A stretch of 28,081 nt of DNA. It comes from a virus. The notes beneath the pieces were generated by a model. It saw nothing but the letters and a program-made list of their open reading frames with translations. It was not told the DNA's origin and made no database searches. Made by a program: the position numbers and the translations under genes. Numbering within the stretch: the first letter of the stretch is position 1; every line of letters starts with the position of its first letter. The stretch lies in the IMG/VR virus record IMGVR_UViG_3300029953_000630; one strand, written 5' to 3'. Positions 3,653-3,786 of the stretch are shown here, one piece after another.

Positions 3653-3786
3653 GCCCCCGTAGCTCAGTGGTAGAGCACCCATTGCGTACGTCCTAATGTC
3701 AAGGTGGGTCGCTCCCACCAGACAAAAGGCATGATTCTAGAACGTGTAGTACGGTGAGGACGCAGGTTCGAATCCTGCCGGGGGCA
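3653..3786 (+). tRNA. tRNA-like gene (134 nt) with perfect 7-bp acceptor stem and a ~55-60-nt internal insertion; anticodon not assignable
   Basis: 5' GCCCCCG-TA-GCTC-AGTGGTA-GAGC and 3' T-arm GCAGG-TTCGAAT-CCTGC + CGGGGGC + A. ACCCA...TGGGT could form the anticodon stem around a 21-23-nt loop. An internal second T-arm-like element GTGGG-TCGCT-CCCAC is present. Confidence 0.45.

Follow-up and report, generated by a model that had tools for sequence, protein, structure and literature searches.

An interrupted tRNA-like gene in a phage tRNA island

What is a transfer RNA (tRNA) gene whose acceptor, D, and T arms are perfect and whose anticodon arm has given way to a much longer sequence? This question is raised by a 134-nucleotide (nt) gene at positions 3653–3786 on the plus strand of the virus record IMGVR_UViG_3300029953_000630, of which a stretch of 28,081 nt (the window) was analyzed. 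The window comes from a large phage genome and begins with a tRNA island of 10 kb, in which ARAGORN found 13 tRNAs (4 for Arg, 3 for Lys, 2 for Asn, and 1 each for His, Gln, Trp, and Met) and to which Rfam added further tRNA-like pieces. Our preferred, though tentative, reading is that the gene is a recently scrambled, non-decoding paralog of tRNA-Arg(CCU), which carries nested tRNA-derived insertions and whose ends are processed in a tRNA-like manner.

The gene coincides exactly with a match to the Rfam tRNA family (RF00005; 51.0 bits against a gathering score of 29; E = 2.3e-8 in the window). Its outer parts are as follows:

3653–3659 (+): 5′ strand of the acceptor stem, GCCCCCG, with 7/7 pairs to 3779–3785 (Rfam tRNA alignment)
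3662–3676 (+): D arm, GCUC-AGUGGUA-GAGC (Rfam alignment), with G18 and G19 present and U instead of A at position 20
3762–3778 (+): T arm, GCAGG-UUCGAAU-CCUGC (Rfam alignment)
3779–3789 (+): 3′ strand of the acceptor stem, CGGGGGC (7/7 pairing), the discriminator A3786, then GCA in place of CCA (comparison with the island)

The original prediction, which described a perfectly paired acceptor stem (GCCCCCG with CGGGGGC) enclosing 134 nt, canonical D and 3′ T arms, an intervening region about 60 nt too long, and a second, truncated T-arm-like hairpin, is confirmed in each of these observations, far beyond chance: (i) all 7 acceptor pairs form, and the discriminator A3786 follows; (ii) the acceptor, D, and T arms are aligned to the Rfam model with high posterior probability, and the T loop fits UUCRANY; (iii) 77 nt occupy the space of 15 model positions in the anticodon arm, an excess of 62 nt; and (iv) the second hairpin is GGUGGG-UCGCU-CCCACC at 3703–3719. 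A canonical anticodon arm (a contiguous 5-base-pair [bp] stem and a 7-nt loop, connected by 1 nt to the D stem and by 4–5 nt or a hairpin to the T stem) is not present in the gene, and ARAGORN in its default mode did not report it. The fold of the whole 134 nt was more stable than those of all 200 shuffles (z = −3.94). The tRNA arms account for this signal: taken by itself, the inner 82-nt part reached only z = −1.47, with 17/200 shuffles equally stable. A scan around the gene found no promoter or terminator.

Structure of the interrupted anticodon arm

The region between the D and T arms was divided on the basis of predicted folds and of an enumeration of possible excisions (described below):

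3678–3684 (+): 5′ strand of an extra stalk (P1), CCCAU, and the bulge UG; pairs with GUG-A-GG at 3754–3759 in the minimum-free-energy (MFE) and cloverleaf-constrained folds
3685–3696 (+): 5′ strand of the putative anticodon stem (P2), CGUAC, and the loop GUCCUAA with the anticodon CCU at 3692–3694; from excision enumeration and shuffle statistics
3697–3748 (+): 52-nt insertion at 38/39, or 3696–3747 at 37/38 (one-A ambiguity); from excision enumeration
3697–3724 (+): hairpin H1 of the predicted folds, a UGUC/GACA stem enclosing the relic T arm GGUGGG-UCGCU-CCCACC (3703–3719)
3727–3729 (+): AGG, which would pair with the anticodon CCU in the unspliced fold (MFE structures)
3730–3746 (+): hairpin H2 of the predicted folds, CAUG-AUUCUAGAA-CGUG, with a 9-nt loop containing the palindrome UCUAGA
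3749–3753 (+): 3′ strand of the anticodon stem, GUACG, with 5/5 pairs to 3685–3689
3754–3761 (+): 3′ strand of P1, GUG-A-GG, and AC; Rfam reads GAGGAC as position 43 and the variable loop

When the tRNA arms were imposed as constraints, the 85 nt that separate the D stem from the T stem folded into P1, which has no equivalent in canonical tRNA, the UG bulge, P2 (CGUAC/GUACG), and a three-way junction with H1 and H2. The relic T arm in H1 matches the T arms at 1348, 3013, and 6104 of the window in 16, 16, and 15 of 17 bases, respectively, with two 1-nt gaps. The 52-nt insert is single-copy in the window, and no homolog of it was found in the ~195 fetched loci; with this, and with a target-site duplication of at most 1 nt, a mobile element or miniature inverted-repeat transposable element was rejected.

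Excision analysis

Strict and flexible searches went through all deletions of one block from the region bounded by the D and T stems. No one precise excision regenerated a canonical anticodon arm, and the best excision of canonical geometry was matched by 40–47% of shuffles. When the requirement for canonical geometry was dropped, a sole Watson–Crick-perfect stem-loop with U33 and a purine at position 37 emerged, CGUAC-GUCCUAA-GUACG (anticodon CCU, Arg), which is unique among insertions of at least 20 nt and is split by 52 nt at 37/38 or 38/39. Its significance was assessed post hoc on 1000 dinucleotide shuffles: 55% contained some perfect arm, 6.8% one with an Arg anticodon, 2.0% one with CCU, and 1.1% one with an Arg anticodon and the insertion at 37/38 or 38/39. 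The shuffle result counts as support for an Arg(CCU) arm since the exons had independently pointed to Arg identity (described below). The support for P2 and GUCCUAA being, or having been, an Arg(CCU) anticodon arm is thus real, if post hoc.

The stem-loop is separated from the D stem by 8 nt (ACCCAUUG) and from the T stem by 8 nt (GUGAGGAC), where 1 and 4–5 nt, respectively, are expected. The two flanks base-pair with each other, so the 82-nt spliced RNA has an anticodon stalk 3–5 bp too long; because the stem-loop sits atop an extra 5-bp stalk, no excision yields a tRNA of canonical geometry. The position of the 52-nt insertion, at or near 37/38, is that of an archaeal/eukaryal-type tRNA intron. 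A bulge–helix–bulge (3-nt bulges around a 4-bp helix) is not formed: the splice sites lie in the 2-nt links AA and UA, and the predicted fold between them has helices of 3 bp (CCU:AGG) and 5 bp (P2), with a whole hairpin in the 3′ “bulge.” The possibility of an intron-containing tRNA, one of three that the original prediction had offered, therefore stands only in part: removal of 52 nt at 37/38 does restore a perfect Arg(CCU) stem-loop, but the 82-nt product keeps the over-long stalk, and no single canonical excision beats chance.

Exon identity and distribution

The 3′-terminal 26 nt of the gene (T arm, acceptor strand, and A73) are identical, 26/26, to those of a long-variable-arm tRNA-Arg(CCU) in the related contig L084 (16443–16468), and both exon halves resemble the tRNA-Arg(UCU) of contigs L002 and L084. 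The same 3′ end is frequent in IMG/VR as prophage attachment-site fragments of bacterial tRNA-Arg(CCU). Because its exons match Arg tRNAs of relatives, the gene is, as judged from its sequence, a member of the tRNA-Arg family, though its D loop lacks A20. The identity set of arginyl-tRNA synthetase (ArgRS) comprises C35, U36 or G36, A20, and A/G73. In the CCU parse, C35, U36, and A73 are present, position 20 is U, and position 32 is G.

Homologs were sought by three routes: through neighboring proteins in IMG/VR and JGI metagenomes, through a search of 5.8 billion proteins followed by contig look-ups, and by scanning IMG/VR and GTDB genomes for exact matches to the junctions and hairpins. The locus was found at 100% identity in five other independent assemblies, of which four were retrieved; assemblies ERZ27249201, ERZ27249391, ERZ27248732, and ERZ27250069 have the identical locus. 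The closest relatives, reached through an ArgRS-like protein, are metagenomic contigs with 56–76% protein identity, one of them on contigs of up to ~310 kb; the INPHARED phage collection contained no near match to the window. No insertion-bearing counterpart was present in the related contigs (L002, L079–L084, and L189–L195), where no island tRNA exceeds ~90 nt, and the pattern search of IMG/VR and GTDB genomes found neither the junctions nor an insert-free allele, except for a chance 20-mer in a Hyphomicrobiaceae coding region. The lineage is sparsely sampled, the nearest neighbor protein being 76% identical.

A proposed scrambled, non-decoding paralog

These results can be accommodated, tentatively, if the numerous tRNA modules of the island recombined or were inserted into one another, most likely recently. 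Such an event would have left an intact “top half” (acceptor stem, D arm, T arm, and elbow nucleotides) and would have replaced the anticodon arm by three nested layers: a 5-bp stalk, a perfect Arg(CCU) stem-loop, and, in the loop of the latter, a 52-nt piece made up of a decayed T-arm minihelix and a second hairpin. With the top half intact, the transcript should fold like a tRNA there and be trimmed by RNase P and the 3′-end machinery. In the unspliced transcript, the anticodon would be buried; if the 52 nt were absent, its distance from the elbow would still be 3–5 bp too great for access to the decoding center, given the fixed geometry of ribosome-bound tRNA. The paralog would have no decoding role.

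Several features favor this reading: (i) no canonical excision beats chance, as described above, nor is the inner 82 nt exceptionally stable; (ii) the T arm inside the insert has two 1-nt deletions; (iii) the 3′ end of the gene is followed by GCA, compared with an encoded CCA in 13/14 other tRNA or tRNA-like genes of the island; (iv) a normal tRNA-Arg(CCU) is encoded at 9921–9997 of the window; (v) the relatives have no counterpart with the insertion; and (vi) the island contains other decayed or partial tRNAs (2413–2478, 4074–4129, and an orphan T arm at 3520). Of the three possibilities originally raised, a composite or chimeric tRNA fits best, with Arg-like exons, a relic T-arm minihelix, and a nested Arg(CCU) stem-loop.

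Other features weigh against it. The insertion falls at precisely the canonical intron site in a perfect stem-loop, with an anticodon that agrees with the identity of the tRNA body (p ~0.01–0.02, post hoc). The acceptor, D, and T arms show zero damaging changes, which is unexpected for an old pseudogene, so the scrambling event would have to be recent; the five identical copies offer no variation that could reveal relaxed constraint. In addition, the paired flanks keep a cloverleaf-compatible fold (−53.8 versus −57.2 kcal/mol for the unconstrained fold), and the same island holds purposeful-looking modules, namely a YrlA-like permuted module and a CCA-bearing minihelix.

Insertions in other phage tRNA genes and the possibility of splicing

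The main alternative to a scrambled paralog is an intron, for which other phage tRNA genes offer precedents. IMG/VR was scanned for the D arm of the candidate followed by 65–95 nt and then GGTTCGAATCC, which yielded 56 loci. These comprised 29 distinct sequences in which the 7-bp acceptor stem is paired. A single excision of 39–59 nt restores a perfect or near-perfect canonical arm in 20/29 of these insertion-bearing tRNAs (chance, 0.7% per sequence); the site lies either in the loop or in the 5′ half of the stem (~28/29). When every fetched locus was scanned for the structure, further cases with different D arms turned up, frequently several in one phage. Interruption of tRNA genes is thus a real and common phenomenon in phages; the candidate is alike in size and place but lacks the clean excision that most of the others have. 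The premise of the original prediction that introns outside group I are rare in phage tRNAs needs correction, since short insertions are frequent in phage tRNA genes in these scans and have been described as “enigmatic introns” of Lak megaphages (PMC6784885).

Dozens of phage tRNA genes with 39–59-nt insertions whose removal leaves perfect anticodon arms were seen in the IMG/VR loci L023–L078 (for example, L051, which is Vibrio phage KVP40 179301–179416, and L039, L064, L053, and L061). Many of the insertions lie after 28/29, following ...(A)CG, and the genes are annotated as pseudo-tRNAs or are unannotated. The insert motif GAUUC-loop-GAAUC-U(G)UACGGCA is common to KVP40-like and other giant phages and occurs in several tRNAs per genome; compared by eye, the candidate contains only GAUUCU and GUACGG, an unconvincing match. 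The KVP40 copy, annotated as tRNA-Pseudo-3, is found in 30 Vibrio phage records (24 at no less than 99% identity and 6 at 95–99%). Excision of a minihelix by RNase P was rejected as a general mechanism, since a T arm is contained in only one other insert (L032), where a canonical T arm lies within an acceptor-like stem.

With a low but appreciable probability, the candidate could itself be a working interrupted tRNA-Arg(CCU), in which the 52-nt intron at 37/38 would be removed by proteins, an RNA ligase of the phage or its host would join the exons, and Tpt1 would clear any junction 2′-phosphate, giving an 82-nt variant that can be likened to the long-arm variant tRNAs of the phage group. The unique, Watson–Crick-perfect CCU stem-loop with U33 and A37 is consistent with such splicing, and its rarity among the shuffles has to be read with the post hoc nature of the test and the 55% of shuffles that yield some perfect arm. 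In the predicted fold, AGG of the insert is paired with the anticodon, much like the intron–anticodon pairing of eukaryal pre-tRNAs, but P2 has 2-nt bulges around a 5-bp helix, unlike the 3-4-3 bulge–helix–bulge, and the product would have 8-nt connectors and a stalk 3–5 bp too long. The excisable insertions of many phage tRNA genes and the conserved “enigmatic introns” of Lak phages (PMC6784885) provide precedents, whereas for the candidate itself no ortholog with or without the insert was found. Tpt1/KptA (175 bits) and the RNA-repair protein RlaP are encoded beside the same tRNA island in related phages. The open reading frames (ORFs) of the 28-kb window, which is part of the genome, yielded no candidate for a splicing endonuclease, an RNA ligase, or Tpt1. 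The phage group retains pairs of normal and variant tRNAs with a shared anticodon, but this variant would lack CCA and A20 and would have G at position 32. A related and unlikely proposal is that the intron, not of group I and holding a tRNA-like minihelix, would be removed by a nuclease, or by tRNA end-processing enzymes working at the minihelix, before an RNA ligase and Tpt1 act, in a phage lineage with RNA-repair genes beside the island.

Other alternatives

It is likewise improbable that the gene is a selected tRNA-like non-coding RNA, in which the top half would serve as a scaffold for processing and stability and the branched arm would display a mimic of the Arg anticodon loop or the palindromic H2 loop. 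The displayed element could bind or decoy a protein, for example a nuclease directed against tRNA-Arg or the truncated ArgRS-like protein, whose gene lies 600 nt downstream. The perfectly kept top half and the cloverleaf-compatible fold are consistent with selection, but the insert folds no better than chance, and the element is conserved in no relative. The rest of the support is contextual. Arg, Lys, Asn, His, and Gln tRNAs abound in the island, which also encodes the truncated ArgRS with its DALR domain; such a pattern is typical of phage counter-measures to tRNA-cleaving defenses (PMC11555353, PMC11464382). Adjacent non-decoding tRNA mimics, the YrlA-like module at 3807–3872 and the minihelix at 2987–3041, point in the same direction. 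The suggestion of a tRNA-derived scaffold RNA, the third in the original prediction, accordingly gained no positive support, given the lack of conservation and the unexceptional insert fold.

A different anticodon is very improbable. The top flexible single-excision parse, CAUGA-UUCUAGA-ACGUG, would make the gene an amber suppressor through the H2 loop UUCUAGA (CUA) after a 52-nt excision near 27/28, and ARAGORN with the -i option calls a tRNA-Tyr(GTA) with a 61-nt intron at 32/33, but neither parse beats chance (47% of shuffles reach an equal score), and the body of the tRNA resembles Arg rather than Tyr tRNAs. In the CUA parse, there is an A-A mismatch and the 15-nt variable region is unstructured; the Tyr parse, rejected for its weak stem and wrong body type, has only 3 Watson–Crick pairs and a bulge. 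The suppressor reading is ruled out because TAG is a normal stop in the window, ending 9/25 ORFs, including that of the 819-amino-acid (aa) vault-protein homolog, and recoding gives no sensible lengthening of genes.

Group I introns have a conserved P1–P9 catalytic core and measure roughly at least 200 nt. Although such introns are known from the anticodon loops of bacterial and phage tRNAs (PMC3984707), a self-splicing group I intron or small self-cleaving ribozyme is effectively refuted by size, as the insert of 52–62 nt is several-fold too short, and no Rfam intron or ribozyme matched at E of 10 or below in searches of 231 and 771 nt. Transfer-messenger RNA (tmRNA) was also rejected (ARAGORN finds none, and the only such Rfam match to the gene is a weak, T-arm-driven one to permuted tmRNA, at 10.4 bits), as was a tag ORF: the 8-codon AUG...UGA frame across H2 is not significant, the chance of no stop in 8 codons being an estimated ~0.7.

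The tRNA island and its gene neighborhood

The island also contains tRNAs with a hairpin variable arm of 17–22 nt, similar to class II tRNAs, at 544–639, 3981–4073, and 5497–5585 of the window; L084 has five (6612–6699, 7386–7474, 8007–8095, 16383–16471, and 17790–17880). Their anticodons in the two phages are those for Trp, Asn, Lys(UUU), and Arg(ACG) or Arg(CCU), and they usually adjoin a normal tRNA with the same anticodon. They are kept between the two phages at 76% neighbor-protein identity. Long variable arms in bacteria are normally restricted to tRNAs for Leu, Ser, Tyr, and Sec.

Decayed and partial elements are of several kinds. A tRNA-like gene at 2011–2091 (Rfam, 37.6 bits) has a CCA end and the anticodon arm CCCGC-CUUCUAA-GCGGG (UCU) and no D arm, and its 22-nt variable region holds the D-loop-like AAUUGGAU. 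The element at 2413–2478 is a decayed long-arm tRNA-Arg(CCG), with its D arm truncated and its T arm cut off at the start of a tRNA-Arg(UCG); its variable hairpin, GAGA-GUAA-UCUC, resembles that of the long Arg(CCU) tRNA of L084. Directly after the long Asn tRNA, 4074–4129 is the 3′ half of a tRNA-Asn (CUGUUAA loop, T arm, acceptor strand, and GCCA) with no 5′ half.

A miniature tRNA-like element at 2987–3041 consists of a 7-bp acceptor stem, a 20-nt connector, a canonical T arm, and an encoded CCA, and gives a local tmRNA match in Rfam (30.7 bits). At 3807–3872 lies a circularly permuted tRNA-like module (T arm, UUCG-closed acceptor-like stem, and D arm), which matches positions 24–84 of the YrlA model at 21 bits; similar permuted modules occur at 3516–3650 of the window and at 7690–7905 of L084, with the recurring loop motif GUAAGUCC. 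No Ro60/TROVE gene was seen in the window. Five copies of a ~30-nt repeat, CCCGGAAAGTCTCGGGGTTCGATTGAAA (a hairpin, then TTCGATTG), are found at 89–152 and 7240–7493 and may be regulatory sites of the island.

The window further encodes homologs of rIIA/rIIB, Ku, the major vault protein, and PTH2, as well as an HNH endonuclease and two R2K ATP-grasp proteins. The truncated ArgRS-like protein (4380–5453) comprises part of the catalytic core and the DALR anticodon-binding domain and has >190 homologs in phage-like contigs. In the relatives, the neighbors of the island (L189:18015–19341; L195:852–1349 and 6882–7610; L193:3327–4268) are truncated TrpRS/TyrRS-like and HisRS-like proteins, Tpt1/KptA, RlaP, and a 2OG-Fe(II) oxygenase. 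The neighborhood looks like a set of RNA-repair and tRNA-conflict genes. Farther along the window are the Ku homolog (19611–20597), an archaeal/eukaryal-type PTH2 (21945–22373), and an 819-aa homolog of the eukaryotic major vault protein with shoulder and repeat domains (22504–24963), a protein that is also encoded by the relative L193.

Implications

The element at 3653–3786 is itself probably a relic. Its wider interest is that insertions in the anticodon arm of phage tRNAs are common and mostly leave a perfect tRNA after one excision, yet the genes are annotated as pseudogenes or missed. The lineage, which combines interrupted tRNAs, long-arm variants, permuted modules, truncated aminoacyl-tRNA synthetases and, in relatives, Tpt1 and RlaP, is a good place to seek protein-dependent tRNA splicing or tRNA decoys in phage–host conflict. 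Should the 82-nt spliced form prove to exist, non-group-I tRNA splicing at the canonical position would have a first worked example in a bacterial virus. An intron removed by proteins would, if true, be the counterpart in bacterial viruses of eukaryal and archaeal tRNA splicing, and tRNA maturation might then be coupled to the phage repair machinery used against tRNA-cleaving defenses.

Comparison with known systems

The closest counterparts are the “pseudo-tRNAs” of KVP40-like phages and other IMG/VR loci, in which perfect acceptor, D, and T arms likewise surround 39–62 extra nt in the anticodon arm; 20/29 of these excise to a canonical arm, whereas the candidate does not. The tRNAs of Lak megaphages have “enigmatic introns,” which are conserved and often identical across cohorts, and within one of these introns a further tRNA is predicted (Devoto et al. 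2019, PMC6784885), a parallel to the relic T-arm minihelix of the candidate. Compared by description only, the Lak genes are also over-long phage tRNA genes, missed or called pseudogenes in bacterial mode, with the insertion in the region of the anticodon loop. They give normal isotypes after excision, whereas the candidate is found in one phage population and would keep a non-canonical stalk.

Archaeal and eukaryal pre-tRNA introns share with the candidate the 37/38 position, the pairing between anticodon and intron, a comparable length, and a 3′ site in a short single-stranded link adjoining the anticodon stem. By contrast, the candidate has no 3-4-3 bulge–helix–bulge, no splicing-endonuclease gene seen in the window, and a non-canonical product, and its gene context is that of a bacterial phage (rIIA/rIIB and encoded CCA). 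Group I introns (PMC3984707; PMC13011429) also interrupt the anticodon loop of bacterial-type tRNAs, but they are several hundred nt long with a catalytic core, compared with an insert of 52–62 nt that has no Rfam match.

YrlA and other bacterial Y RNAs (Chen et al. 2014, PMC4201824), together with tmRNA, resemble the candidate as read here in being non-decoding RNAs built on a tRNA-like domain that is recognized by tRNA enzymes. The YrlA match in the island (21 bits, below the gathering score of 69) belongs to the neighboring module at 3807–3872, ~20 nt downstream of and outside the candidate. YrlA is circularly permuted, has a closed acceptor stem, and has both its ends in the terminal Ro60-binding stem, whereas the candidate has the open ends of a normal tRNA; tmRNA has a tag reading frame, pseudoknots, and no D stem, whereas the candidate retains a full D arm.

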